Source: a virus
Taxonomy: Duplodnaviria > Heunggongvirae > Uroviricota > Caudoviricetes
Strand: one strand, 5' to 3'
IMG/VR virus record: IMGVR_UViG_646311924_000007
Coordinates: 32,001-96,000 of that record
Length of the DNA stretch: 64,000 nucleotides
Numbering within the stretch: position 1 is the stretch's first letter; each line of letters begins with the position of its first letter. Below, one piece after another: positions 1-58,629 of the stretch. A program made the position numbers and the translations under genes. The notes under the pieces were generated by a model, which saw only the letters and a list, made by a program, of their open reading frames with translations, was not told the DNA's origin and searched no databases.

Positions 1-1138
1 TAAATGGTAGTTTTCTGACCTCTTTATACGAGAATTTCTTGTTCAACTCATTCGGCACCTTCTTAAAGGCAGCCAGGATCATTTCTTCAAGCTCTGACTG
101 GCTTTTATTTGGATGCCACCCTGAAATAAATATCTTATTGATATTCCGAACATTATAAGCACCATCTAATTTCTCTTGCTGGCCTTCGCCCCATGCCTTT
201 ACCCATGACAGTCCCGGGATGTTACGCACCAGAAAATACGTATAGTCCCCGCCCCATACGACCTGATCATCATAGGCAAGGTAATATTGTGCACGATTAC
301 GTGTGATCTCCGTTGTTTCGGCATCGGTACCTGCGGTTATGGGTGTCGTTGTCTTAACTGAAATCAAATTAGCTAAATTAGCCGCAGAATCGACAGGCGT
401 CAGATTTTGGCCAGCAACCAAGGTTATATCTCCGTTGGTGCACCATACCTTAAGTGTAATGGTCGAGCCTTCTGGCGGTATTTGCCCAATTAGCCCATCA
501 CCGAATCGAACCCCCAACTGCTCGGATGGTTTATAAAACTCAACGTAGACCTGGCTTTTACTTCCGGCTAACCGGAACATAGTGCTGGAAGACCACTGCG
601 TGGTCTTACCATCGGTCGTCACGAATACTTCCAGCTTATAGCAAACAGCAGTGAGAGCCTTTGATAACACGACTTCCAGAAATTCTTTAGCTGCCGTAAC
701 GGTATATGTCACCTCCTGGATTTCCAACTGTGCCACTTCTACCGTACCGGTGCCGTCAACCAACCTGCATACATCCATAGTCATGTAAGGATACTGGTCG
801 TCAGATATTAAAGGCATGTTTTTGGGGATTACCGCTGGGGCATCTTCACTTGTGGCGGTGATCTCAATCATCCCCGATGACGGTGTTGGCTTGGTACCAA
901 CGTAACTATTCGTTTCTGCCGCTGCCAGGATAGAAGAACGCCGCGTCGCGGTCGATATAAAGCCTTCAGCCAGCGCCGCATCGGCATACTGAAAGCACCT
1001 GTAGACAATCTGGGTAATAAACAATGTCAGCATCGAGACAAATTGAGAGCCGACAAACTTCGACCAGAATGAATCTTTCTCGACAAGCTCTTCAAACTCT
1101 GCACGAATACTGTCTTTAGTAGGTGTTGTTTTACTCAT
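1..1138 (-). CDS. phage baseplate/tail structural protein (J/gp6-like?), N-terminal part; gene runs off window start
   Basis: ATG at 1138-1136 overlaps the TGA of the upstream gene (ATGA); frame stays open to position 1. Family assigned from position in tail module only. Confidence 0.4.
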   Translation of the reverse strand, partial: MSKTTPTKDSIRAEFEELVEKDSFWSKFVGSQFVSMLTLFITQIVYRCFQYADAALAEGFISTATRRSSILAAAETNSYVGTKPTPSSGMIEITATSEDAPAVIPKNMPLISDDQYPYMTMDVCRLVDGTGTVEVAQLEIQEVTYTVTAAKEFLEVVLSKALTAVCYKLEVFVTTDGKTTQWSSSTMFRLAGSKSQVYVEFYKPSEQLGVRFGDGLIGQIPPEGSTITLKVWCTNGDITLVAGQNLTPVDSAANLANLISVKTTTPITAGTDAETTEITRNRAQYYLAYDDQVVWGGDYTYFLVRNIPGLSWVKAWGEGQQEKLDGAYNVRNINKIFISGWHPNKSQSELEEMILAAFKKVPNELNKKFSYKEVRKLPF

Positions 1139-1494
1139 AGCACCACGTCCTGTGTGATAGTTATATCCCTGATACGAATGGATATTTTCAACTTATCAAA
1201 AGCATCTCCCTCGGCTACTGACAAGCCAGAAATCGGTATGTCGGGTAAATCTACCGTCAGTTTTTGCAAAAGCATTGCCTCAACCGCAATTTGAACATGC
1301 GACAAGTTGGTCGGTTCGTGTTTAAACTGCGGTAAAACATTGCCCCATGACGGATCTCCGTATACCTCACCCTGATAAGTGTTTAGCCACTCATATAAAC
1401 GAGCGCCCCAGGCCTCCTCCTGGGACTCATACGTTTTTACGCCGGATAACTCCAGCGTCAGCAAAGGATCAATTTCGTTATTGTTGGCCATCAA
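1135..1494 (-). CDS. baseplate wedge protein (GpW/gp25-like)
   Basis: 119-aa ORF translationally coupled to both neighbours; size and the L.TY.GE..GDP.WG..LP motif resemble gp25/GpW-type proteins. Confidence 0.45.
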   Translation of the reverse strand: MMANNNEIDPLLTLELSGVKTYESQEEAWGARLYEWLNTYQGEVYGDPSWGNVLPQFKHEPTNLSHVQIAVEAMLLQKLTVDLPDIPISGLSVAEGDAFDKLKISIRIRDITITQDVVL

Positions 1495-4400
1495 TCAACT
1501 CTCGCGTAGTCATTCATCAACGGATCATCAATTGACAGTGGTACCGTGCGCATAACGCCCGGCTGAGGCGTGCTGACCTTTACGACAGTTCCCTGGCCTT
1601 TCGCCGAGTCTTTGGTGTGCTCTTCAATCCTGGCAAGCAATGAGGTCATCTGCGCAAACAGCCGCTTCGTTTCACCATCAAGTGAAACGGTATTATCAGC
1701 CAACTGCATTGTCGGCTTGGCACCGGAACCGCCAAGGTCACTAATAACCTGCCCGTCTATCTGCATACGACCGGTTGGTTGCTGCAAATCGTTGGCGGCA
1801 GTCGTCACCTGGGACGTGGAGGCTGGTTCAGGCGCATTATTTTTCCGCATCCCCGGCGAGTTGCGGAGTTTATCGAATAGTCCATCAATCCCCATTTGTG
1901 CGCCGAGCTGGTCAAAGTAACTTGAGTTGTTGGCCACCGGACGCGCCTCTTCAACTGGCATCGGGGTATCAACATACACATTGCCAGCTGCTGTTGCGGT
2001 CCCCTTCCCTCGTGCACGTTCTTCTAGCGTTCCCTGAACGACTTCCCGACGCATCCCCCGGCCATTCATGAATTTGTTGACCAGATCGTTAACGCCAACA
2101 GCATTGCCGATTTTGTCTACCAAACCGCCTTTCTCAAACGGGCTATCACCAGGGGTAAACGCCAGACCAGTAGACTGATCGATAACGGCGTTATCAGGTA
2201 GTGGTTCCCTCACTCCATATTGCGCCCCACCCTGTGCTCCTGCCCCAGGTGTATAGATTTCACCACCTAAATAGCGAGCACGATGAGTATTGACCTTGAT
2301 CGCGTACTCACGGTTTTCCTTCGATAAGTCACCGGTGCCTTTTTTCCACTTATTAATAGTGCCAAACCCAGCGTTATATGCAGTGATGGCCTCGTTTAAG
2401 TCTCCATTGGCTTGCTTCAGATACTTGCTCATGAGAAGAGCCGCAGCTTCTGCCGATTTCACAGGATCAAACGATTCACCTTCAGCTAAGCCAGTCTCTT
2501 CACGAGCAATGCCCGTGAACTGAAACATTCCTAGAGCACCAGTTTGTGATTTTGCGTACGGATTACCACCAGATTCAGTTGCAGCAATCGCGTAAAGAGT
2601 GCCTTCAGGAAGACCATATTTATTCTCCAGTTCAGCAAAATACGGAGCTAACTTATCGAGATTTGCCTTACCTTCAGCGCCAAGGCTTCCGACTTTTACA
2701 TCTAAGTTGCCATTATTGTAGGTATCAGCAGCTTTCTGAATGTCATTCCTGGTGCCGGTGGTATTACGCGACGATGATGACGAGCTATTTTGTCCAATAG
2801 CTGAATCAATTTTCCGCACCGCGCTATTGCCCGTTTCTACGGCATTTGCATTGATAATCTGATTGGCAGTTTCTTTAACTGTTTTATTGCTATCTTTCGC
2901 CGTGTCCAGTGCCGCATTTATCACGCGGGTAGCAATATTAGTCTGTTTAGCATCGGATTCAGTTTTAGAATCAGATGTCTCCTGGTGGCTATTAACCGGA
3001 GCTTTTAACTCTGGAGTGATTTCTTTTGCATTAGCCTCGCCGATCGGATTGGGTATTTTTGATACAATCATTGCCGCAGGGGTATTTTTAACGGCATCAA
3101 CCGCTGCATCTAATGCTTTACCGGGTAAATTTTTAACCCCATCCCAAATATTACCAGCCGCCTCTTTAATGTGTTTTCCTGGGTTCTTAATGAAGTCAAT
3201 TGCACTATCAATTGCATCACTGAAAACCTGTTTCAGGTTATCGACAGTAAAGAAGTCTTTTATGGCATCCAGCTTTTCAAGCAACTTATTAGATGTATCG
3301 CTAAACCATGCTGAAACAGCATCACCAATCTTTGCTGTGTAATCATCGAACTTGGTAGAAATGGTGTCGCCAAGGTTAGAAATATATGTTTCTAAGTTGG
3401 TAACCCCACTATCAATGGCCTGGGCAATACTTTCCGTCGAAAATGATTGCAACATATTGCCGATATCCTCAAATCCAAGTGATTTGAGAACATCACCAAT
3501 AGCACTGCTAATACCAGATACCAGTCCCCCCATATCGAGAACATTGGCTAACGTATAAGCGGCTTTTTGCTGGAATGATGGATCTTGTCCTGATTTAAGC
3601 CCAAACGCTCGACGTTGCGCTTCTGTATCATTCCAACCGGTTACCGCATCATAAATACCTCCAGCCACTGTGCCGACTAGGGGAATTGCGCGTAACGCCC
3701 CTTTACCAACTGCCTTTAATCCAAGTTTACCTGCTGCCCGGGCAGCCAAATCTCCGCCTTCATGGGCGAGAGTCTTCTTGCCACCACCGCGTAGCATTCC
3801 TACAAGTTTCTTTGCCCCCAGAGCGCCAAAAGCGAGTGCTCCAGCTTTTTTCAGCATGCCACGCCCCATTAACAACGACGCGACGCCACCGGCCCCCTTC
3901 CCTAACAGGCTAAATAGTTTGGACAGCAAGCCGCCCTTCTTTTTACCGGTGTTTTTGGCTATCTGATCAAGGGCGCGGAGAATCTTGTCATTGCCCTCTT
4001 TAATTTCGCTGGTCTGCTCCTGAAGTTCCTGAACCGTCCGTTTTTGGGTGTTAACCTGAACGACATCGGCACTATTTTGCGATTTACGCCTAAAAAAACC
4101 TTTTCTACGGCTGTTATCGTCATTGCCACGAATCACATCGGCAATAGACTTTCTGGCACCATTAAGCGATCCACCAACTTCTTTTGATATCCCGCCAAGC
4201 TCCTTCCCTGCTGCCCACAATGGACCAGCAACGGCATAACCTAACGCATCGACAGCACGAGTCTCTGAAGGGTTGCCTATGCCTTCAGCTACTTTTGACA
4301 GTTTTTTTAATAAACCTGATTCAGCATTTAGACGCTCATCATCCTCTTTGCGCCTGGCCTTTTCAGCACGTTCAGCACGGGCATCTTCCGCTGCGGCCTT

Positions 4401-4883
4401 ACTCCCTGACTTTCCAATAAAACGACCACGCGCATCGCGTTGGTTTTGGCTTTTTTGCGCACCGCCTTTTTGACCGAACATTTCGCGAGCGTGTTCGGCT
4501 GCTTCGGTCCGTTGCGCCTTTACATCTTCTGTTATAGCCTTCTTGCGTCGTTTTTTACCCTTTCGCGTAGTTGATTTGGCCTGCGGTTCCTGTAGAGCAA
4601 CATCCTCCTGAACTACACGAGAAACGTCCCCTAAATTAAGCCGTTTCATTGCCTCAACAATAGGGTCCACTGATGGCGCATTGGCCACAAAGTCTGGCCG
4701 GGAATTTTCGATTGTGCGATTTAATGCCGACACACTACGAGAGACAGGATCAACTGTAGCAACTCGCCCCCCTTTCAAATCTTCAACGGCTTCCCGAATA
4801 CCTGCAAGCTCTTCCAGCTCTTTTGCGCTGGCGGTTTCAACCGTCCTTATCACATCGTCAATGTTGGCGTTTTTTCTTTCCAT
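1491..4883 (-). CDS. sit: Sit-like tape-measure/internal virion protein with lytic transglycosylase domain
   Basis: 1130-aa ORF; SLT motif EGTLYAIAATESGGNPYAKSQTGALGMFQF; long Ala/Gly/Lys-rich central region; size close to P1 Sit. Confidence 0.85.
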   Translation of the reverse strand: MERKNANIDDVIRTVETASAKELEELAGIREAVEDLKGGRVATVDPVSRSVSALNRTIENSRPDFVANAPSVDPIVEAMKRLNLGDVSRVVQEDVALQEPQAKSTTRKGKKRRKKAITEDVKAQRTEAAEHAREMFGQKGGAQKSQNQRDARGRFIGKSGSKAAAEDARAERAEKARRKEDDERLNAESGLLKKLSKVAEGIGNPSETRAVDALGYAVAGPLWAAGKELGGISKEVGGSLNGARKSIADVIRGNDDNSRRKGFFRRKSQNSADVVQVNTQKRTVQELQEQTSEIKEGNDKILRALDQIAKNTGKKKGGLLSKLFSLLGKGAGGVASLLMGRGMLKKAGALAFGALGAKKLVGMLRGGGKKTLAHEGGDLAARAAGKLGLKAVGKGALRAIPLVGTVAGGIYDAVTGWNDTEAQRRAFGLKSGQDPSFQQKAAYTLANVLDMGGLVSGISSAIGDVLKSLGFEDIGNMLQSFSTESIAQAIDSGVTNLETYISNLGDTISTKFDDYTAKIGDAVSAWFSDTSNKLLEKLDAIKDFFTVDNLKQVFSDAIDSAIDFIKNPGKHIKEAAGNIWDGVKNLPGKALDAAVDAVKNTPAAMIVSKIPNPIGEANAKEITPELKAPVNSHQETSDSKTESDAKQTNIATRVINAALDTAKDSNKTVKETANQIINANAVETGNSAVRKIDSAIGQNSSSSSSRNTTGTRNDIQKAADTYNNGNLDVKVGSLGAEGKANLDKLAPYFAELENKYGLPEGTLYAIAATESGGNPYAKSQTGALGMFQFTGIAREETGLAEGESFDPVKSAEAAALLMSKYLKQANGDLNEAITAYNAGFGTINKWKKGTGDLSKENREYAIKVNTHRARYLGGEIYTPGAGAQGGAQYGVREPLPDNAVIDQSTGLAFTPGDSPFEKGGLVDKIGNAVGVNDLVNKFMNGRGMRREVVQGTLEERARGKGTATAAGNVYVDTPMPVEEARPVANNSSYFDQLGAQMGIDGLFDKLRNSPGMRKNNAPEPASTSQVTTAANDLQQPTGRMQIDGQVISDLGGSGAKPTMQLADNTVSLDGETKRLFAQMTSLLARIEEHTKDSAKGQGTVVKVSTPQPGVMRTVPLSIDDPLMNDYARVD

Positions 4884-4964
4884 GATCTTATCGCCTACCG
4901 CTTCGGTTTAAGTTTTTCTTCCAGTTTCTCCAACAGGAAAAACGCATAGGATTCAGTGAGACTT

Positions 4965-5846
4965 TCAGCGTCCTGAATCGGTATACCCCCATACAAAACC
5001 AGGTTGGACACTAAGGTCTGATAGCTTTTCAATCCCCACCTGTGGAATGAAGTCGGTAGCCCGAAAGGGCACCCACAGACGGGTATACGCACCCTCTGTG
5101 GACTCCTTTGTATCCTGGTTTGGGCATTTGTGCGGCGGGAGACGAAGACGCATTTCGCCTTTATCGATGTAGCACGGTAAACCATGTTCGAGCTTTTCAT
5201 GAGCCAGCCGGATGTGTGCCGCCAGCTTCATAAATTCAGTATCAATGGCCATCCGTTTGATCGTTTCATAACGACGCTCAGCCTGCTCTTCACGAGTACC
5301 GCTAACATCGTTATAAAGTTCACACTGATAAGCGAATTCCCAAAAACGCAAATCAACGATCGCTTCTTTGAATTCCGCGTCGTCTTCAGGTGGCAATGCT
5401 GCACGGCGCATCTCCAGCATTTCCATTGCCCAACCATCAAGCGGCACGATACGCCATTGATAAGGCACGCCCTCTACAGACACCTCAATATCGTCAATGA
5501 ACGGTTCCACTTCCAGGACCTGGATATCTTCAGCCAGAGCATTCATATCGCAATCGTAATAATGCTCTTTACCGCAATGTTTACAGGTGTAGGTGAATGT
5601 CTCGACCGGTGTTTCACGGGAGCCAGTAAATATCCACCATAACGCGGTAATCCGGTCCTGCGCCGTCCATGTCAGGGGATCATATTTCGCGGGTTCAGCC
5701 AGCAAGGCTTTTAAATACGCCGTTGTCTGTTGTTCTTGTTCCTCCGGTGTTATCGAGTTGAAACGCATCGCATCAGCAATATTTGGCTGACGGAACTGGA
5801 TCAATTCAGTTGGCCGCGATGGTAGCGGGAAAAGAGGTAAAAGCAT
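4965..5846 (-). CDS. hypothetical phage protein (Cys cluster CKHCGKEHYYDCD)
   Basis: 293-aa ORF in same orientation as sit operon; no family recognised. Confidence 0.45.
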   Translation of the reverse strand: MLLPLFPLPSRPTELIQFRQPNIADAMRFNSITPEEQEQQTTAYLKALLAEPAKYDPLTWTAQDRITALWWIFTGSRETPVETFTYTCKHCGKEHYYDCDMNALAEDIQVLEVEPFIDDIEVSVEGVPYQWRIVPLDGWAMEMLEMRRAALPPEDDAEFKEAIVDLRFWEFAYQCELYNDVSGTREEQAERRYETIKRMAIDTEFMKLAAHIRLAHEKLEHGLPCYIDKGEMRLRLPPHKCPNQDTKESTEGAYTRLWVPFRATDFIPQVGIEKLSDLSVQPGFVWGYTDSGR

Positions 5847-5860
5847 CCTTGCTCCTTAAT

Positions 5861-6472
5861 TCAAAGAGAAAAACTAAAGCCCAGAAGGGAAGCTAAAGAA
5901 CTTGAGGATTGGTTAAACGTGCTGTGCAATGCGAAGGTCATTGGGAATGACTTAAATTCCGTAACCTGATCCCGCGCATAGGTGACATCGCCGGTAGTGA
6001 CTGGGAATACCGTCATCTCATTTTCCAGTTTGGTTAAACCGGAGGACAGCAACCGATAAATACGCACATTGAGCAAATATTTAGACGGTATATTCCCGGT
6101 ACCGTCCGGATTGATCACCCGACCTTTTGCCGTCTTAAACCAGTCCAAAACGAGGCCATCAACGGTATCCCTGACCATCATTGTTATCTGCCCAGGCGAA
6201 CGCTCCGTTGGCTGAAGGATATTCCCTCCGCCGATTTTAATCGTTTCATATTCGATGCTGTAATCGTGGTAGGTAATGTCTTTAGCAAAGAAGTCTGCCC
6301 CCTCCAGACCATCAACTTCGACAGAGAACTGCCATCCTTGCGCGAACAGCATTTTGTTCATGATGATTGACGTCAGCTTACCAACTTCCCGCTCACCAAC
6401 GCCGGAGCCAAATAATGTCGTCGTTAATGCCGAAGATACATAAGACTTTACTGAAGCAACATTAAGCCCCAT
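5861..6472 (-). CDS. hypothetical phage protein
   Basis: 203-aa ORF, tightly spaced in minus-strand operon. Confidence 0.5.
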   Translation of the reverse strand: MGLNVASVKSYVSSALTTTLFGSGVGEREVGKLTSIIMNKMLFAQGWQFSVEVDGLEGADFFAKDITYHDYSIEYETIKIGGGNILQPTERSPGQITMMVRDTVDGLVLDWFKTAKGRVINPDGTGNIPSKYLLNVRIYRLLSSGLTKLENEMTVFPVTTGDVTYARDQVTEFKSFPMTFALHSTFNQSSSSLASLLGFSFSL

Positions 6473-6482
6473 ATCAGCCCCC

Positions 6483-7073
<591 letters not shown>

Positions 7074-7107
7074 TTAACCGATTCTACGAGTAGTCATTTG
7101 TGACAGG

Positions 7108-10973: not shown

Positions 10974-11819
10974 ATGCTGGCTAAAGTCACTTTCCTGAGC
11001 TGTATAACGATGAGCGATTTTACTTTTTCTGGCTATGAATTGGCCTGCTTTGTAACACACTCCGGTCTATCCCGTAGCGCCGGGCATATCCTGTCGCAAT
11101 GTGCAAATCTCGCGGCAACAACCAGTGAATACTTCATTCACAAGCCTCACCGCCTGATCGCGGCAGAAACTGGTTATAGCCAATCAACCGTCGTTCGTGC
11201 ATTCCGTGAAGCTGTAAACAAAGGAATCCTGTCAGTAGAGATTGTTATCGGCGATCACCGTGAACGTCGCGCTAACCTGTACCGGTTTACACCATCCTTT
11301 TTGGCCTTCGCACAACAAGCAAAAAATGCGCTGATTGAAAGCAAATTAAAGATCTCTTCAGCGGCAACCAAGGTTAAAGCTGTTCTCGCTAAGACATTGG
11401 CTTTATTTAATTTTTTATCCACACCCCCATGTCAAAATGATACCCCCTCCCCCTGTCAGGATGACGTGGCAATAAAGAATAAGAAGTCACAATTTAAAAA
11501 AACAAAAAGATCAGTTTCCGGCGCTGCCGGAACGACCAAACTCAAAAAATTGACTTCATGGATCGCTGAGGCAAAAGCAAAGGCTGACAATCTGCGGTTA
11601 TCCAAAAAACGCGCTCAAAAACATGAGTTCAAGCAGAAAGTAGAGGCGGCAGCGCGGAAATATGCTTACCTGAAGAACAAGCGTTCTCCTGATATTGGCG
11701 GGGTATCAAACTTCGATAATCTGCCGCATTGCATGACGGTAAACGAAGCTCTTAATGCGGTTTTAGCCAAAAATAAAGATAACGAACAATGGGGTATACC
11801 GGCAGGATTCAGAGGGTGA
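10974..11819 (+). CDS. repL: lytic replication protein RepL
   Basis: 281 aa, same length and position as P1 RepL downstream of kilA. No sequence comparison run. Confidence 0.65.
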   Translation: MLAKVTFLSCITMSDFTFSGYELACFVTHSGLSRSAGHILSQCANLAATTSEYFIHKPHRLIAAETGYSQSTVVRAFREAVNKGILSVEIVIGDHRERRANLYRFTPSFLAFAQQAKNALIESKLKISSAATKVKAVLAKTLALFNFLSTPPCQNDTPSPCQDDVAIKNKKSQFKKTKRSVSGAAGTTKLKKLTSWIAEAKAKADNLRLSKKRAQKHEFKQKVEAAARKYAYLKNKRSPDIGGVSNFDNLPHCMTVNEALNAVLAKNKDNEQWGIPAGFRG

Positions 11820-17909: not shown

Positions 17910-18023
17910 GGCACTTGTGTGAATCCCTTTTCGGAAGAGATTTTATTGAAAGTCACTTGTTGACTTTCTCGTGACAAGCAATTTTTTTATTTTTTCGGGA
18001 GTAGGGGAGGAAGGTAAAATCCA

Positions 18024-21597: not shown

Positions 21598-22539
21598 TTA
21601 TGGATTGCGCTTATGGATCTGAAAGCCGATTTTCCTGCCGTTTTTTATCTCTGAAAATTTAAGATATTCAATAGCTTCCAAATCTTTCATGGCTTTTCTG
21701 ATAACGCTATTTTGCACGCTAACGGATGATTTGAGATTAAGCCTTGCTCTAAGGCGCTCAATGCTGACAGGTGCCGGGTTGGCGGGTAGAGCCTCAAAGA
21801 ATGTATACAGTACCTTGGCCGTCTCTTTGCGCCCGAGCTTATCCAGCATCTTCAGCTTCAGGATTCGCTTATAGTCAACATAGTAAAGTTCAGATAGCTG
21901 TTTCTGCGGCTGGATCTCGATAACATCAAGCTCGGTATTCAGGCTGCTATATGCCAACAAGTTGACGTTAATGTTATTGAGATGACCTTTTGCCGCCGGG
22001 AAGCGGAATTTGACAACTGTCTGCTGAATGCGTGTCAGAGAGTCATCAATACTTTTACGGAACGCCTTTGAAAGGCGCTTACGTGGATAGCCGCATCGAT
22101 CGGCAAACTCGGAGAATGGCAGGGTGATTATGCCGTCATCATCAGGTGCGTAGTCAAACAACGCGGAGGTTATGCCCACCCACACCTTAAAATCAGTATC
22201 CATATCCAGGCGTGGACCATGAATTTCAATTCCCTCATAGCCTTCCTGCTCAACAATTTTGAGGCTTGATAGTTCTTCGGTTGCGTTCGTTGTGTTTGTA
22301 GTAACTGACGATCCGCGACGTAGTGCCACATTGGTAGATTTTAAGGTTGGCACAAACACACCTAAGCGCAACAAAGCAATGGGTTGTATAGTGCTATTGT
22401 TATTGGGTTTCAGGCTGTGGATTTCTCCTGTATTTCCTGCAACTTCTTCAACGCTAAGGAAGCCTTTATTTTCTTCCAGCATCGTGGTTTCTCCATATGT
22501 GGCGCGGCCTGGCGTCATCTGGATTGCAGTTATCAACAA
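21598..22539 (-). CDS. repA: plasmid replication initiator RepA
   Basis: ORF flanked by iteron arrays on both sides as in P1 oriR-repA-incA; true start may be an internal Met. Confidence 0.75.
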   Translation of the reverse strand: MLITAIQMTPGRATYGETTMLEENKGFLSVEEVAGNTGEIHSLKPNNNSTIQPIALLRLGVFVPTLKSTNVALRRGSSVTTNTTNATEELSSLKIVEQEGYEGIEIHGPRLDMDTDFKVWVGITSALFDYAPDDDGIITLPFSEFADRCGYPRKRLSKAFRKSIDDSLTRIQQTVVKFRFPAAKGHLNNINVNLLAYSSLNTELDVIEIQPQKQLSELYYVDYKRILKLKMLDKLGRKETAKVLYTFFEALPANPAPVSIERLRARLNLKSSVSVQNSVIRKAMKDLEAIEYLKFSEIKNGRKIGFQIHKRNP

Positions 22540-22557
22540 CTGTGAATAGTCAGGCTC

Positions 22558-22663
22558 TAAAATCGCGTACAGTCAATGTTTCTGTCGCATATAGTCAACA
22601 ATAAATCGCGTGCAGTCAACAATAAATCGTGCACAGTCAACATAAAATCGCGTATAGTCAATG
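22558..22663. repeat. incC: incC-like iterons (5 direct copies) / plasmid origin
   Basis: Five ~19-bp repeats AAATCGCGT(A/G)CAGTCAA(C/T) at ~21-bp spacing upstream of repA. Confidence 0.7.
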
Positions 22664-22815
22664 TTGATCCCATTTCAGGCCAGAAATGGCGCGGCTTACA
22701 GCGATCCGGGATCTTCTTTGGATCTTCCTGGGTTCTCTTTAGGATCTGTTTATTGGATCTATGCTGTGGATAAGTTGAATAAACCGGCCAACATAGCCGG
22801 TTGGAAGGAAGGGTA

Positions 22816-23208
22816 TTATTCTACGCTTTCGATAAGAAGACCATGTTCATAACATTTAAGCTCATCGCCTTCGTACAGGAATTGGTATCCAATACCACCA
22901 TTTTCATGGACATTAGGGAATAACTCATAACTCACTGAAGAGCAAATCACACCAATGCAGCGATCAACGCCTTCTCGTTCTTCAGTGCTGAAAAAATCCT
23001 CTTCGGTAAGAACATGAGTACATTGCTCATCAGCATAGGTCGGAAATACATGCTCGATGCAATCCGGGTGTTTTAAACCAAGCTGATCGGCAAGCTCGAA
23101 AGCATGACGGTATTGTTCAGATCCTGGCTTGCCAACAGTGATGTGCTCAATTTTGTAGATTGAAGTCGCTTTGTTGATAGTTTGCTTTACTGTTACTTTA
23201 TCAGACAT
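22816..23208 (-). CDS. hypothetical protein
   Basis: 130-aa acidic ORF adjacent to the replicon. Confidence 0.45.
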   Translation of the reverse strand: MSDKVTVKQTINKATSIYKIEHITVGKPGSEQYRHAFELADQLGLKHPDCIEHVFPTYADEQCTHVLTEEDFFSTEEREGVDRCIGVICSSVSYELFPNVHENGGIGYQFLYEGDELKCYEHGLLIESVE

Positions 23209-23219
23209 AAAAATCCCTT

Positions 23220-23471
23220 TTAGTTACCGCTGATAGCGCGGTTGTAATCATTAACGTTGCGATTCTTCCTGTTAATCCCCATCAGCATCGTTTCTGTATC
23301 GAGGATATACGCTGGCAGATCATCAAAATATTCACTGCTAAACTCTGGCATCCTGCACATAAACGCACTTTTGGGGGCAGGGTGGTTAACCTTTGTCGGC
23401 GTCGGCGTTAAATTCGCTGATCGACTCCCGGAGCAACCGCTGAGTGTCAGCAGGAATGCGCTGGCGAACAT
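23220..23471 (-). CDS. lipoprotein (mlp-like; possible o-spanin)
   Basis: Lipobox LTLSGCSG after Met at 23471; 5' part lies inside the overlapping TM/coiled-coil gene in another frame. Confidence 0.45.
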   Translation of the reverse strand: MFASAFLLTLSGCSGSRSANLTPTPTKVNHPAPKSAFMCRMPEFSSEYFDDLPAYILDTETMLMGINRKNRNVNDYNRAISGN

Positions 23472-23808
23472 TACCCGCCGCAACCAGTTGTTTCTGAACT
23501 TCAGCTTTTCGTTCCATTTGCCTGTCAGCATATTTGGCTTGTTCTGATTCATTTTTCACTTCCTGGCTGTGAAAATGTTGCTCTGCTTTGTTCATCGTCT
23601 CAATGGTCTGGTTAAGATCCATTATTGACTTATCACGTTCCTTAACAGCCTGATCAAGACTGCCAATTTTCTCCATGGCTTGCTTTAGCTGATGACGTTC
23701 CCATGCAAACCCAGCACCAACAAGTGCGCAAATCAGAACAAGAACACCAGTAGCAGCAAGTTTCTCCTTCAAAGACAAAGCTGTTTTTAACGTAGAAAAG
23801 AATGACAT
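23386..23808 (-). CDS. membrane-anchored coiled-coil protein (possible i-spanin)
   Basis: Start taken at Met 23808 (MSFFSTLKTALSLKEKLAATGVLVLICALVGAGFAW), TM then coiled coil; overlaps lipoprotein gene out of frame. Confidence 0.4.
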   Translation of the reverse strand: MSFFSTLKTALSLKEKLAATGVLVLICALVGAGFAWERHQLKQAMEKIGSLDQAVKERDKSIMDLNQTIETMNKAEQHFHSQEVKNESEQAKYADRQMERKAEVQKQLVAAGNVRQRIPADTQRLLRESISEFNADADKG

Positions 23809-23847
23809 GTCTTCCTCCTGAAGAAAAATTATCAATGAAGTCCTTTG

Positions 23848-24693
23848 TTACCGTGCCGCTTTGTTTAATTCATCAAGAACAGAATCAGGAACCAAAGCGG
23901 CGACTGCGCTGGCTGTGCTGGCCTTATTTGCTGATGCTTCCGCAAGCGCGGTACCGATAGCATGGTTATAAGCAGTTATGGCTACGTTGGCGCTTTCATT
24001 CGCTCGTTCATACTGCTGTTGTAACGCAGTTGTGGGTGCTGTTGTCTGGTTGAAAACAACCCCAAACTGTTCAGTTGCTACTTTCAGAGATTCAATTTGC
24101 TCTTCTGTTAGTGCTGGTGGGGGAGTGGCAGTGCCGCCGCCTGAACCAGAGCCTGACGAGCTTTCTGAGCCAGTGTTAAGGGCCTGGTTAATCTCCCCCA
24201 TTGCAGCGACTAAACTTGATGTATTAAGCGCGTTAACAGCGTCCTCAAGCGATTTAGTAATATTCACATCACCAATGGCAATAGAGATCGGCAGTTCTGA
24301 AACTTCTCGCTCATTAGCACGGCAGTAAACATCCCAACCAATATCGAGTTGAAGCAGCATTGACAGATCTGCATAACCAGCCAACAGGTCCGCGTGCTTA
24401 GTTGCCAGTTCTCCAATGTTCGTTAAGCCGGTTGTGGTTGTTCTGATCGTTGAAACATAGCTGGTAATAGTGTCGGGATAGACAATTGTATCCAGAATTA
24501 ATCCGGTCAATTCTTCTGCAAGCAGTTTTGCTGTGTTAGCACTGTTTCGTGCCGATGTTATGGCACCAGGTGTTTTCATCCCACCGGCGGCGGCCAATTT
24601 TTTATATGCGGATAACTGGTAGTCTTTTTCCAGCATGATATCTCCTAACTTACCTGAACCAGGCCGTCTCCGGACGCTACGGTAGATCCGCAT
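23848..24693 (-). CDS. hypothetical protein with Ser/Gly-rich linker
   Basis: 281-aa ORF downstream of PAAR-like gene. Confidence 0.45.
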   Translation of the reverse strand: MRIYRSVRRRPGSGKLGDIMLEKDYQLSAYKKLAAAGGMKTPGAITSARNSANTAKLLAEELTGLILDTIVYPDTITSYVSTIRTTTTGLTNIGELATKHADLLAGYADLSMLLQLDIGWDVYCRANEREVSELPISIAIGDVNITKSLEDAVNALNTSSLVAAMGEINQALNTGSESSSGSGSGGGTATPPPALTEEQIESLKVATEQFGVVFNQTTAPTTALQQQYERANESANVAITAYNHAIGTALAEASANKASTASAVAALVPDSVLDELNKAAR

Positions 24694-24929
24694 GAAACAG
24701 GGTCACCAACGCATACGATCCCTTTACCATTGACGGTAAACCATGCCCTGGTTGATATAGCTTGCCCACCGTGCGTACTGTTTCCATCGGTATGCTGTGC
24801 ATATTGCTTACCATCAACTAACACTTCGACTCCGTTGACTTTAAGTAGTGGTTCACTCTCTACAGGAGGCCTGGATGGGAATCCTCCGTGCCCCGAACAA
24901 ATGCTGTCTTTTGTTGCAATGCTTGCCAC
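24645..24929 (-). CDS. PAAR-like spike-tip protein
   Basis: 94 aa with SGHGGF, HTDGNSTHGG and VCVGDPVSCGSTV motifs typical of PAAR-repeat proteins. Confidence 0.5.
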   Translation of the reverse strand: MASIATKDSICSGHGGFPSRPPVESEPLLKVNGVEVLVDGKQYAQHTDGNSTHGGQAISTRAWFTVNGKGIVCVGDPVSCGSTVASGDGLVQVS

Positions 24930-25010
24930 GCCATCACCAATTATTTGCTCTGATTTTCGTTATTTTAACTTAGGTTATTTGTGGTCTGTATGGCGTTTAC
25001 TTATCGCAAA

Positions 25011-25027
25011 ATTGCTCTAATAAATAT
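25011..25027 (+). promoter_or_regulatory. C1 operator-like site (ATTGCTCTAATAAATAT)
   Basis: 16/17 to consensus, in divergent intergenic region between PAAR-like gene and uhr/hrdC/dmt operon. Confidence 0.65.
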
Positions 25028-25383
25028 TGTTTTTTATGTCGTATTTTCGGTACCATTCAGCCATCGCCCTTCAATGGGCATTTGTTTGGAGTCGTCAGAT
25101 GCAGATGGAGCTAATAAGCCGCAAAGAGTTCGATAGCCGTGTAACCAGCGGTGAACTCGACAACTTGCAGGCTATCAAGGTGAAAGAAGGCTTTTGCCTC
25201 ATTGGGAATCAGAGCGGAATAAATCGCGTTTTTATGCTTCGCCGTACGGATTTGAAGCCATTTGTCTGGAAGAACGAAATTGGTCCCAGCTCATACGCTC
25301 AAACGAGGGGGTGCCACAACCTGGCCTTTTTCTACAAAGACGAGCTTTCTGTGGTTGATATTCAAGGGTTACAACATGTTTAA
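25027..25383 (+). CDS. hypothetical protein upstream of hrdC (uhr position)
   Basis: 118-aa ORF; start uncertain. Confidence 0.4.
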
Positions 25384-26281
25384 GCACTGGAAAAACATTA
25401 CTATTTATAAACTTTCTCGTGAGGCGGATCTGACCGACTTAGAAGATAAAAAGAAAATGATCCTTTTCACGCCATGCGGTAGTCAGGATATGGCCAAGTT
25501 CGGTTTTGTATCGCCATTTGGTGATAATTCTGAAGTTATCGCTATGCATGGAAATGGTTTTATCCTTGTTGAAGCAAAGCGCGAAACAAAAATTCTTCCC
25601 CCGCCGGTTATCCAGCGAGCTATTCAAGAAAAAATTGAAAAACTTGAGCAAGAACAAGCGCGTAAACTGAAGAAAACAGAGAAGGACTCCCTGAAAGACG
25701 AAGTTCTGCATTCTCTTCTGCCACGGGCTTTTTCAAAGTTTTCTGTTATCCAGGCGATCTACGACGGTTCAACTAAACGTATCTATATCAATGCCAGCGC
25801 GCGGCAGGCAGAGGATATGCTCGCGCTTATGCGTAAGTCTCTGGGTTCTCTTCCTGCTGTTCCCCTGAGTGTTGAAAATCCCATTGAATTAACGCTGACC
25901 GACTGGGTACGTGATGGTAGTGCTCCACAGGGATTTCAAATGGGGGATGCGGCAGAACTTAAGGCAGTGCTTGAGGATGGCGGTATTGCCCGAGTGAAAA
26001 AGCAGGATTTGGGAAGCGATGAAATTTCCACACACCTGGAAGCTGGCAAGCTCGTCACTAAGTTGGCACTCGACTGGCAGAACCGCATTAAATTTACACT
26101 GGACCATAACTTCAGCCTTACCAGCGTCAAATTTGCGGATGAATTGCTTGAGCAGAACTCTGATATTGATAGTGAAGATGTTGCGCAGCGACTGGACGCA
26201 GATTTCTTCCTGTTGACCAGTGAAATTTCGTGCCTGGTTGATGCTCTGGTAAATGCCCTTGGCGGAGAGGCTAAGCAGTGA
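25376..26281 (+). CDS. hrdC: RdgC-like recombination-associated protein
   Basis: 302 aa from ATG 25376; long identity runs to E. coli RdgC as recalled ([45 protein letters not shown]). Confidence 0.85.
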
Positions 26282-29200
26282 AAGAGCTGTGCTATGGATC
26301 TGTTTGCAGTGGAATTGAAGCCGCGAGTATTGCCTGGGAACCGTTGGGTATGCGTCCGGCGTGGTTTGCTGAAATCGAGCCTTTTCCATCGGCCGTTCTT
26401 GCGCTCCGCTGGCCCCATGTTGCCAACCTTGGCGACATGAAAAAACTTGCCAAAAAAGTCTTGGCTGGGGAAATCGAATCCCCTGACGTGCTCGTCGGGG
26501 GAACACCATGTTTTACCGCGGGGCATATGGTTCTTTGTAAAAATGGCTATAAACCAATAGAAAATGTTTGCCCTGGTGATTACGTAGTCAGTCATCTCGG
26601 GCGGTTACAACAAGTAAAAAGAGTTGGTTCAAAAATAGCTAATACGGGGTTACTTAATGCCGTTGGGCAGCCTTTAGGTATAAGAACAACCAATGACCAT
26701 CCCTTCCTGGCTGTTCGGTGGAAAGCCCAAAACACCCGGAAAAATGGCACATATTTTAAGAGAGAGTTGTTGTCTGAACCGGAATGGCGAGCAGCATGTG
26801 ATATGCCGGGATATCAATGGTGCGCTCTAACTAATTTCAATATTGCATTTCCAGATATTTGTTCTCGGTTCTTGTCTGAAGAACAGGCTATGTATCTTGC
26901 GGGCGCTTATGTTGGCGATGGATATATTAGGAGATGGAGAGGTAAATCTAAGAAGGCGGTTGTTTTTGGCATAAATTGCCAGAAATTGAGAAAGTTTCAT
27001 TGCCGCATACCAGAAAACATATTTTCCGTGGCAAGCGAAATCCGAGGGAGCATCAAAGTAACCTTGAATGATACGTGTTATGCCAATTGGCTTAATGAAC
27101 ATTTTGGCGAGTTAAGCCATGCTAAGCGTATCCCTGCATGGGTGATGTCGCATCCATTGCGTCATGTGTTTTTACAAGGCTATCTTGATACTGATGGGAC
27201 ACCAAGTGGTAAAGCGGGATTTAGAATTAATAGTGTTAGTTCTGCGCTTGCTTGGGGCGTTGCGGGGTTGTCACAGACTTGTGGTTATGTTTCTTCGGTC
27301 AGCTTTATTGAAGTTGAGCCCAAAAAAGTGATCGAGGATCGCGTGGTAAATCAACGGAATTATTATCAGGTAACAATCTGCCCGCAGAAATTGTCACGTA
27401 AATCAAGATTGGCTCATGGAATGCTTTTACGAACAGTCAAAGAGTTTAAATCGGTAGGCCTAGATACTGTATACAACATAGAAGTCGAAGGTGATCATTC
27501 CTATATCCTCAATGGTGCGGTGGTCCATAACTGTCAGGCATTCAGTATCGCGGGATTACGTGGTGGGCTTGATGATGAGCGTGGCGCGCTAACTTTAAAG
27601 TATGTGGAGCTTGCAAATGCAATTGACGACAAACGGGCTGAGTCATTTCTCAAACCAGCCGTTATCGTCTGGGAAAATGTCCCAGGAGTCTTGTCATCGG
27701 CAGATAACGCCTTCGGATGTTTCCTTGCCGGATTGGCTGGAGAAGATGTGCCATTTGAACCAGGTGATCGACCTGAATCAGGAAAAAGCAACGCGTTCTG
27801 GCGGTGGGATGGCAAAACCGGTTGCCATGTTCCAAAGTGGCCGCAGTGTGGTTGTATTTATGGACCGCAGCGAAAAGTGGCCTGGAGAATCCTTGATGCC
27901 CAATACTTCGGAGTGGCACAACGACGCCGACGCGTGTTTGTTGTCGCAAGTGCTCGAACAGATCTCGATCCCGCAACGGTACTTTTTGAGTTCGAAGGCG
28001 TGCGCCGGAATATTGCGCCGAGCAGAGGCGAGGGGAAGGAAACTACCAGATATACTTCAAACATCGCTATCAGAACTTGCGATGATACAAACATAATTGC
28101 CATGGCACATGGGCAAGGAGGGGCTGAGATAAAAACCGATAATTCGGCACCAACTTTGACATGTAACCATGAAGCACCAATTGTATTGCTCGGCGACGGT
28201 AGAATGCGCCGTCTTACCCCTGTCGAATGTGAAAGGCTGCAAGGTTTTCCTGATTGGCATACGTTGATCCCTACGGAAAAGCGTAAAAAAGTTAATTCAG
28301 ATGAACTGGCATATCTGCACAATCACTATCCAGATTTAAGCGAAGAAGAGGCCGCAATGCTTGCAGCTGACGGACCGCGTTACAAAGCGATCGGCAATAG
28401 TATGGCAATACCAGTAATGCGCTGGATTGGCGATCGGATTACTAAGGCCGTATGTCGGCAGAAAGAAGGAAGTGAAACAAAAGAGCGAAAAGTTAAACCA
28501 GCGGCAGAATTCGAACGGTCCATATTCAAATGGGCTGGTGGAAAATTTGGTGTTCTGGAACAAATCTTTCGCTATTTGCCAGAAGGGAAGCGCCTGATTG
28601 AACCTTTCGTTGGTGGCGGAGCTGTCTTCATGAATGCCGGATACCAGGAAAATCTGCTAAATGATGTGAATGCTGACCTGATTAACTTTTACAAGACTCT
28701 GCAACGCGAGGCGCATTCACTTATCACTCTGGCACATCGTTTCTTCCAGGACTACAACACACAGGAAGGATACCTGGCAGTACGGAATGCGTTTAACAAA
28801 CAAGTCTATGATGATTTACATCGCGCAGCGGCGTTTTTGTTCCTGAACCGACATTGTTTTAACGGATTGACGCGTTACAACCAGGCCGGTGAGTTCAATG
28901 TCGGTTATGGGAAGTATAAAACTCCGTATTTCCCATTACAGGAGATGGAAGCCTTCCTCGGTGCGGAAGGGCGGTCTGAGTTTGTATGCGGTGATTTTGC
29001 AGCGGTGATTGAAGCTGCCGGAGAAGGAGATGTCATCTTTTGCGATCCGCCGTATGAACCGCTTCCAAATACAGAGGGATTCACGAACTATTCCGGTCAT
29101 GACTTTAAGTTTGAAGAGCAAAAACGCCTGGTGTCTCTGTTGACGGATGCTCATCGTCGAGGTGCAAAGGTTCTCATTACTAACAGTGGCGCGCCAAACA

Positions 29201-29319
29201 TCAGAGAGCTTTATCATGACAGTGGCTTCAGAGTGGAACCTCTTTTTGCCAGACGTTCTGTGTCTTGTAAGGGGGACACTCGAGGTGTAGCTCATGACGT
29301 TTTGGGTATATTGCTCTAA
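26278..29319 (+). CDS. dmt: bifunctional DNA methyltransferase Dmt (C5-cytosine MTase plus Dam-like N6-adenine MTase) carrying an intein
   Basis: GTG start overlapping hrdC stop; C5 motifs IV ([12 protein letters not shown], split), VI (ENV), IX ([16 protein letters not shown]), X (GNSMAIPV); Dam-like FKWAGGK and DPPY in C-terminal half. Confidence 0.85.
26509..27531 (+). mobile_element. intein with LAGLIDADG homing-endonuclease domain (341 aa) inside dmt
   Basis: Starts Cys (CFTAGHMVL), block B TTNDHPF, two LAGLIDADG motifs ([22 protein letters not shown]), ends [16 protein letters not shown] then +1 Cys; removal rejoins GGTP and CQAFSIAG. Confidence 0.8.
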
Positions 29320-58544: not shown

Positions 58545-58629
58545 TTGATTGCTTGCCCGTTCCGGGCCTTTTGACATGTGACTTTCGTTACCCTCGCGTC
58601 AAAAAGAGTTTTTACGAAAGGAAGCATAA

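Follow-up and report, generated by a model that had tools for sequence, protein, structure and literature searches.

Why should a tailed phage encode a PAAR-like protein next to a plasmid replicon? The question is raised by a short minus-strand gene in a 64,000-nucleotide stretch of viral DNA (positions 32,001 to 96,000 of the IMG/VR record IMGVR_UViG_646311924_000007), referred to below as the window. An original prediction, made from the letters alone, saw in this gene a 94-residue protein with PAAR-type motifs that opens an operon diverging from an operator, and judged its placement to be unusual. The evidence as a whole is best explained, and in our view almost certainly so, if the gene is taken to be upfC from a P1-like phage-plasmid and its product to be a bare 94-residue cone of PAAR repeats. 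This finding is correct but ordinary, with both the gene and its role already described: the link to T4 gp5.4 appeared in the 2004 annotation, the spike-tip role was predicted in 2022, and cryo-EM followed in 2025-2026.

Identity of the gene and its reading frame

The reading frame runs on the minus strand from a GTG at 24929 to a TAG at 24645 and consists of 94 codons and a stop. In both length and start it agrees with P1 upfC (AF234172, 64779..65063), which is stated in the 2004 annotation of that record to be 31% identical to T4 ORF 5.4, and its counterpart in the RCS47 record is labeled 'UpfC (PAAR motif)'. Over the surrounding region, 22500..26500, identity is 100% with Escherichia phage vB_EcoM-Ro157c2YLVW and 95-98% with P1, P7, RCS47, and SJ46, and this near-identity to phages of the P1 family places the window, by its sequence, within a P1-like (Punavirus) phage-plasmid. 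P1-type UpfC also occurs in plasmids, where tblastn finds it at an identity of at least 95% in 541 plasmid records, mostly from E. coli. The structural and genetic data discussed below all come from P1 itself, of whose upfC the window copy is a 99%-identical relative.

Fourteen of the 15 codons that differ from those of P1 and RCS47 are synonymous. In the comparison with the more distant upfC of Cronobacter phage JK004, third codon positions take 54 of the 80 nucleotide differences, and in D6, whose protein is 57% identical, the frame and the length are still kept. The pattern of differences marks upfC as a real gene under purifying selection.

PAAR similarity and the metal site

The original prediction had named a PAAR profile search as its check and the lack of any match as grounds for giving it up; the search was run, matches are present, and the assignment of a 94-residue PAAR-like protein stands. 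The PHROG 281 profile ('PAAR motif') matches UpfC over residues 1-93 with an E-value of 2e-30. The Pfam family PAAR_motif (PF05488) covers residues 51-91 only, with an E-value of 8.5e-6 and a score of 26.4 bits, which is 0.6 bit below its gathering score of 27. When PDB sequences are searched with phmmer, UpfC is 93/94 identical to 9vyi_A, a chain that is itself named 'UpfC', and there are further hits to a T4-like tip (9f4b_BA, E = 5e-10), to T4 gp5.4 (4ku0_D and 5iv5_ZA, E about 1e-7), and to VCA0105, a T6SS PAAR protein of Vibrio (4jiv_D, E = 3.7e-4). The nearest relatives outside the P1 group are the spike tips of T4-like phages.

Four residues of UpfC, H14, H46, H53, and C80, are invariant in an alignment of the P1-type, JK004, and D6 proteins with two T4-type tips, and they align with the metal site of T4 gp5.4, which is made up of three histidines and one cysteine. 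In gp5.4 this site, which includes H14, coordinates Fe tetrahedrally and is needed for folding (preprint, PMC12407873). By analogy, the His3Cys site of UpfC may bind Fe or Zn and would then staple the tips of the hairpins.

UpfC in the P1 virion

On the basis of HHpred, Gonzales et al. (2022; PMC9024508) predicted that UpfC corresponds to gp5.4, the spike-tip protein of T4. In the same study, deletion of upfC caused no plaquing defect, and LC-MS/MS of P1 virions did not detect UpfC, a miss that was attributed to the small size of the protein and to its single copy per virion. Both upfC and upfB were also non-essential in a genome-wide CRISPRi screen, where upfC had an efficiency of plating of 1.1 (PMC10695390). 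In a 2026 cryo-EM study (PMC12810830), a monomeric UpfC was built on the trimeric gp5 spike in the map of the P1 baseplate, and the P1 gp5/UpfC assembly was found to have a 'striking structural similarity' to T4 gp5/gp5.4. An independent preprint also locates UpfC at the tip of the needle. In addition, UpfB was assigned to three trimeric 'tripod' densities that are attached to the spike tip (PMC12810830), for which an AlphaFold3 model was fitted to a map of medium resolution. Virion proteomics, which the original prediction had put forward as a second check, was thus already in the literature with a divided outcome, mass spectrometry having missed UpfC and cryo-EM having found it in the virion.

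The pair gp5.4/UpfC is the only one among the tail proteins of T4 and P1 that BLAST can detect, and T4 gp5.4 reportedly contributes to fitness and to the infection of LPS-truncated hosts (PMC12407873). There is only one histidine in P1 gp5, and the HxH motif is missing, which is described as a characteristic of spikes that need a separate tip protein (PMC12407873).

Gene order around upfC

The original prediction confined the baseplate genes to the two ends of the window, and this proved to be wrong. Those for the wedge and the tube, bplA, pmgA, sit, pmgB, tub, and pmgC, occupy 2..7049, and the final 14 kb of the window matches the pacA/pacB/lpa/ant region, but genes 5 (spike), 6 (hub), and 26 (plug) are in the middle of the window, at 34952..39700. 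The product of gene 5 matches the PDB chain 9vzk_q ('Gp5') with an E-value of 7e-136, and after the gene come hub gene 6 and genes 24, 7, 25, and 26, which extend as far as 39700. The distance from upfC to the spike gene is about 10 kb, not tens of kb.

The immediate neighborhood is as it was first described. The gene is the first of a minus-strand cluster in which upfC, upfB, ppfA/mlp, and upfA are co-directional (Table 1), and the terminator-like hairpin just past upfA is likely to be the end of the cluster transcript. Beyond this hairpin come oriR/incC and then repA, so that the neighbors are indeed spanin-like genes on the one hand and plasmid genes on the other. The order of upfC, upfB, and an Rz-like spanin gene is common to P1, P7, RCS47, SJ46, JK004, and D6, even where the proteins have diverged; identity to the window is 78% for UpfC and 58% for UpfB in JK004 (gene_27/gene_26) and 57% and 27% in D6 (orf57/orf56). 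The D6 cluster adjoins plasmid partition genes. Judged by these gene orders, a position beside the replicon is the normal, old, and conserved layout of P1, and the description of it as unusual has to be given up. Moreover, since the adjacent upfB encodes the reported physical partner of UpfC, upfC is not isolated from structural genes.

The start of upfB deserves comment. In the P1 reference, UpfB has 281 residues and its gene starts at 24693, which produces a 49-nt overlap with upfC. The ATG at 24636 lies 8 nt past the upfC stop and has an AGGAG 7 nt before it, the PHROG 1559 alignment begins at residue 20 of the long reading frame, and the homologous genes of D6, JK004, and MH160767.1 have their starts at the corresponding place. 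The start in the P1 reference has probably been mis-set, the true start being the ATG at 24636 for a product of 262 residues, and upfB is probably translationally coupled to upfC. A sequence search for relatives of UpfB in the PDB found none. Further along the cluster, ppfA is 423 bp long in P1 and its ATG in the window, at 23808, has an AGGAGG before it; the P1 record also carries an mlp annotation that matches the mlp of the window.

Table 1. Coordinates of features in and around the upfC cluster (positions in the window)
Feature	Position	Strand	Description
upfC	24645..24929	-	94-aa PAAR-type spike-tip protein; GTG start, TAG stop
upfB	23848..24636	-	262 aa from ATG 24636; PHROG 1559 (E = 1.6e-137)
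ppfA	23386..23808	-	Rz-like (i-spanin-like), third gene of the cluster; PHROG 89 'Rz-like spanin' (E = 1.5e-25)
mlp	23220..23552	-	Lipoprotein / Rz1-like, overlaps ppfA; PHROG 30284 'Rz-like spanin' (E = 2.2e-77), PHROG 15803 'lipoprotein'
upfA	22816..23208	-	Last gene of the cluster; PHROG 1453 (E = 2.4e-61); P1 annotation
Terminator-like hairpin	22788..22804	-	T-rich run (6 T in 10 nt); match to consensus only
C1 operator Odmt (Op68)	25011..25027	+	ATTGCTCTAATAAATAT, one mismatch to the operator consensus; P1 annotation
Weak Lpa-box-like late-promoter candidate	24962..24980	-	Upstream of upfC; AAATAACCT-aagt-TAAAAT; PWM score 10.2, rank 15
Weak late-promoter-like candidate	23828..23846	-	Upstream of ppfA; AAAGGACTT-catt-GATAAT; PWM score 10.8
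gene 5	34952..35581	-	Trimeric beta-helical spike; tblastn with P1 gp5, 98.6% over 210 aa

Operator, promoter, and timing

The operator from which the upfC operon had been said to diverge is a genuine match to the C1 operator, but the operon that it serves is the rightward uhr-hrdC-dmt, not that of upfC. In the P1 annotation, Odmt abuts the -35 element of Pdmt, which reads rightward into uhr-hrdC-dmt, and no promoter is annotated for upfC in the P1 record. The RNA-seq data for P1vir (PMC8201110, Table S1), expressed as log fold change over time zero, separate the two sides. The five genes of the upfC cluster stand at 4.8 at 10 min and 10.9 at 30 min, close to known late structural genes (3.9 and 11.2), whereas the divergent uhr-hrdC-dmt genes have already reached 8.95 at 10 min and stand at 11.4 at 30 min. 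The upfC cluster has late-gene kinetics and uhr-hrdC-dmt is early, and therefore the operator belongs to the divergent side. Control of upfC by the C1 operator was rejected on both grounds, the abutting rightward -35 element and the different kinetics of the two sides.

Neither a sigma-70 scan nor a weight matrix (PWM) for late promoters reveals a strong promoter in front of upfC. One 9/12 match (24968..24940) came out of the sigma-70 scan, the counts of which were no higher than those in shuffled sequence. The late-promoter matrix was built from 8 annotated P1 late promoters and consists of a 9-bp -22 box (AAGTGACTT), 4 nt, and a TANNAT -10 element; the promoters from which it was made score 12.3-20.8, and about 128,000 positions of the window were scanned. 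It recovers LPsit (7099..7081), LP26 (39748..39730), and two more strong sites, all four of which score 19-21. The Lpa-box-like site upstream of upfC scores well below these and is partly conserved, its AATAAC core and TANNAT hexamer being kept in JK004; it is a candidate for the promoter that drives upfC. The similarly weak site upstream of ppfA has its -10 element in common with P1ppfA, a sigma-70 promoter predicted in the P1 record. Apart from LPsit and LP26, strong to moderate matches to the matrix, with scores of 13.5-21, are found at 10974..10992, 17940..17958, and 38025..38043 on the minus strand and at 58576..58594 on the plus strand.

The rightward operon has features of its own. Its first gene under C1 control, uhr (25027..25383, plus strand), encodes a protein that matches PHROG 2213, 'nucleoside triphosphate pyrophosphohydrolase', with an E-value of 5e-63; Uhr has no match in Pfam, and the P1 record lists its function as unknown. 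The Dmt methyltransferase reading frame (26278..29319, plus strand) encodes 1013 residues, compared with 754 in P1. It contains an intein-like insertion of 341 residues (26509..27531) that begins with CFTAGHMV, ends with VVHN, and is followed by CQAFS, and the insertion lies exactly at the catalytic cysteine of the C5-methylase PCQ motif, which is uninterrupted in P1. Pfam searches find Hint_2 at residues 77-126, with 28.2 bits where the cut-off is 28.4, and LAGLIDADG_3 at residues 298-361. Long forms of dmt (3288 bp) are also present in RCS47 and in vB_EcoM-Ro157c2YLVW. A second difference lies between the methylase domains, where about 185 bp at 28022..28207 take the place of about 431 bp of non-aligning sequence in P1, leaving the window Dmt about 82 residues shorter than that of P1 in this part, intein aside. 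The window also differs from vB_EcoM-Ro157c2YLVW at 28022..28207.

A proposed mechanism for the P1 spike tip

The mechanism we propose begins at the center of the baseplate, where one monomer of UpfC caps the gp5 trimer at the blunt far end of its beta-helix. The tetrahedral metal site formed by H14, H46, H53, and C80 would clamp the tips of the UpfC beta-hairpins together and thereby produce a sharp apex. Contraction of the sheath would drive the gp6 hub, the gp5 spike, and the UpfC tip through the outer membrane, and homology suggests that the cone would sharpen and stabilize the membrane-attacking end as this takes place. The tip would also be the attachment point for UpfB, the trimers of which may form the 'tripod' at the end of the tail. 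Transcription of upfC-upfB-ppfA/mlp-upfA is late, like that of other virion and lysis genes, and independent of the C1 operator, and the tip is dispensable for plaque formation in the laboratory.

A broader version of this mechanism can be imagined, although we consider it improbable. Here upfC-upfB-ppfA/mlp would make up a single 'envelope-crossing' module, the PAAR tip would serve mainly as an adaptor that carries the UpfB tripod, and the tripod would be a conditional device for sensing the outer membrane or LPS on particular hosts. The position on the replicon side in P1 and D6 would then be that of an exchangeable host-range cassette. The model for the adaptor is provided by T6SS PAAR proteins, which carry effectors, and that for a host-dependent tripod by gp5.4, which matters for T4 on LPS-truncated cells. 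No sign of an exchange of the upfC-upfB-ppfA/mlp module was found.

A role for UpfC at the tip of the phage spike must also be weighed against the proposal that it is a 'moron' of the plasmid prophage, namely a PAAR protein of the T6SS type that lysogens would make and that would cap the host VgrG spike or modify T6SS activity. The best NCBIfam match of UpfC is T6SS_PAAR_dom (NF033420; E = 4.5e-9), the category given to PHROG 281 is 'moron, auxiliary metabolic gene and host takeover' even though UpfC is a virion protein, the gene adjoins plasmid maintenance genes, and plaques form without it. The NCBIfam score, however, is 36.3 bits, against an equivalog cut-off of 124, and alignment shows the 94 residues to be a bare PAAR core with neither an effector nor an adaptor extension. 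A T6SS neighborhood (VgrG, Hcp, or sheath) was looked for around upfC and was not found, the neighbors being P1 plasmid, spanin-like, and methylase genes and the spike partner being the phage protein gp5. With UpfC seen by cryo-EM on the virion's gp5 spike, RNA kinetics that are those of late structural genes, and T4-like spike tips as the closest relatives outside P1, a T6SS-directed role is very unlikely.

Much the same can be said of membership in the lysis cassette. UpfC would in that case act together with PpfA and Mlp to disrupt the outer membrane from within, and it is true that upfC is co-directional and tightly packed with the Rz/Rz1-like genes, that this gene order is kept in JK004 and D6, and that the late kinetics are the same. 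In P1, however, virion and lysis genes are normally transcribed together from late promoters. The Pfam search of the protein gave the PAAR profile alone, a membrane anchor is not evident in its sequence, and both homology and structure point to a cap for the spike, so that a part in lysis from within hardly seems credible.

The idea that the frame is open by chance, for which its shortness, its GTG start, and its omission from the gene tables might speak, is practically without weight, refuted as it already is by the strong PHROG and PDB matches, by the model of UpfC in cryo-EM maps, and by codon-level conservation (synonymous to non-synonymous changes of 14:1 against P1, and mostly third-position differences against JK004).

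That omission is where the practical value of a spike-tip assignment lies. The gene is unannotated in MH160767.1, the GenBank entry for the nearest phage, and the PLSDB tables of P1-type plasmids do not list it, so that upfC is absent from the tables of hundreds of such plasmids. Copies of the D6 type are annotated, under the name 'PAAR domain-containing protein'.

Comparison with known systems

The closest known protein is UpfC of P1 (AAQ14038; 9vyi_A), which is identical at 93/94 positions and whose gene has the same position, GTG start, and neighbors. The one difference is a conservative substitution, with A86 in P1 and S86 in the window, and is accompanied by 14 synonymous changes. The element around the window gene is closest to vB_EcoM-Ro157c2YLVW, a relative of P1, and is not P1 itself.

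T4 provides the best-understood parallel. T4 gp5.4 (4KU0, 5IV5) has 97 residues to the 94 of UpfC, and the two are about 31% identical over their full length. They have the His/His/His/Cys positions in common, and both cap a trimeric gp5 beta-helix as a monomer. Dispensability in plaque assays is a further parallel between them. The systems differ in their surroundings: gene 5.4 is close to gene 5 in T4, whereas upfC is about 10 kb from gene 5 in P1; P1 gp5 is without the lysozyme domain, unlike T4 gp5; and the UpfB tripod on the P1 tip has no counterpart in T4.

Homology extends in sequence to VCA0105 (4JIV; PF05488), where it is still detectable at an E-value of 3.7e-4. According to Shneider et al. 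2013, as cited in PMC12407873, PAAR proteins of the T6SS sharpen a trimeric beta-helical spike, and this is a role that UpfC would have in common with them. Unlike the T6SS proteins, UpfC has no T6SS context and no effector extension, and it scores below the NCBIfam equivalog cut-off. Closer to the window in organization are D6 and JK004, in which a PAAR tip, a UpfB-like gene, and an Rz-like spanin gene follow one another in the same order, although the proteins themselves are divergent.
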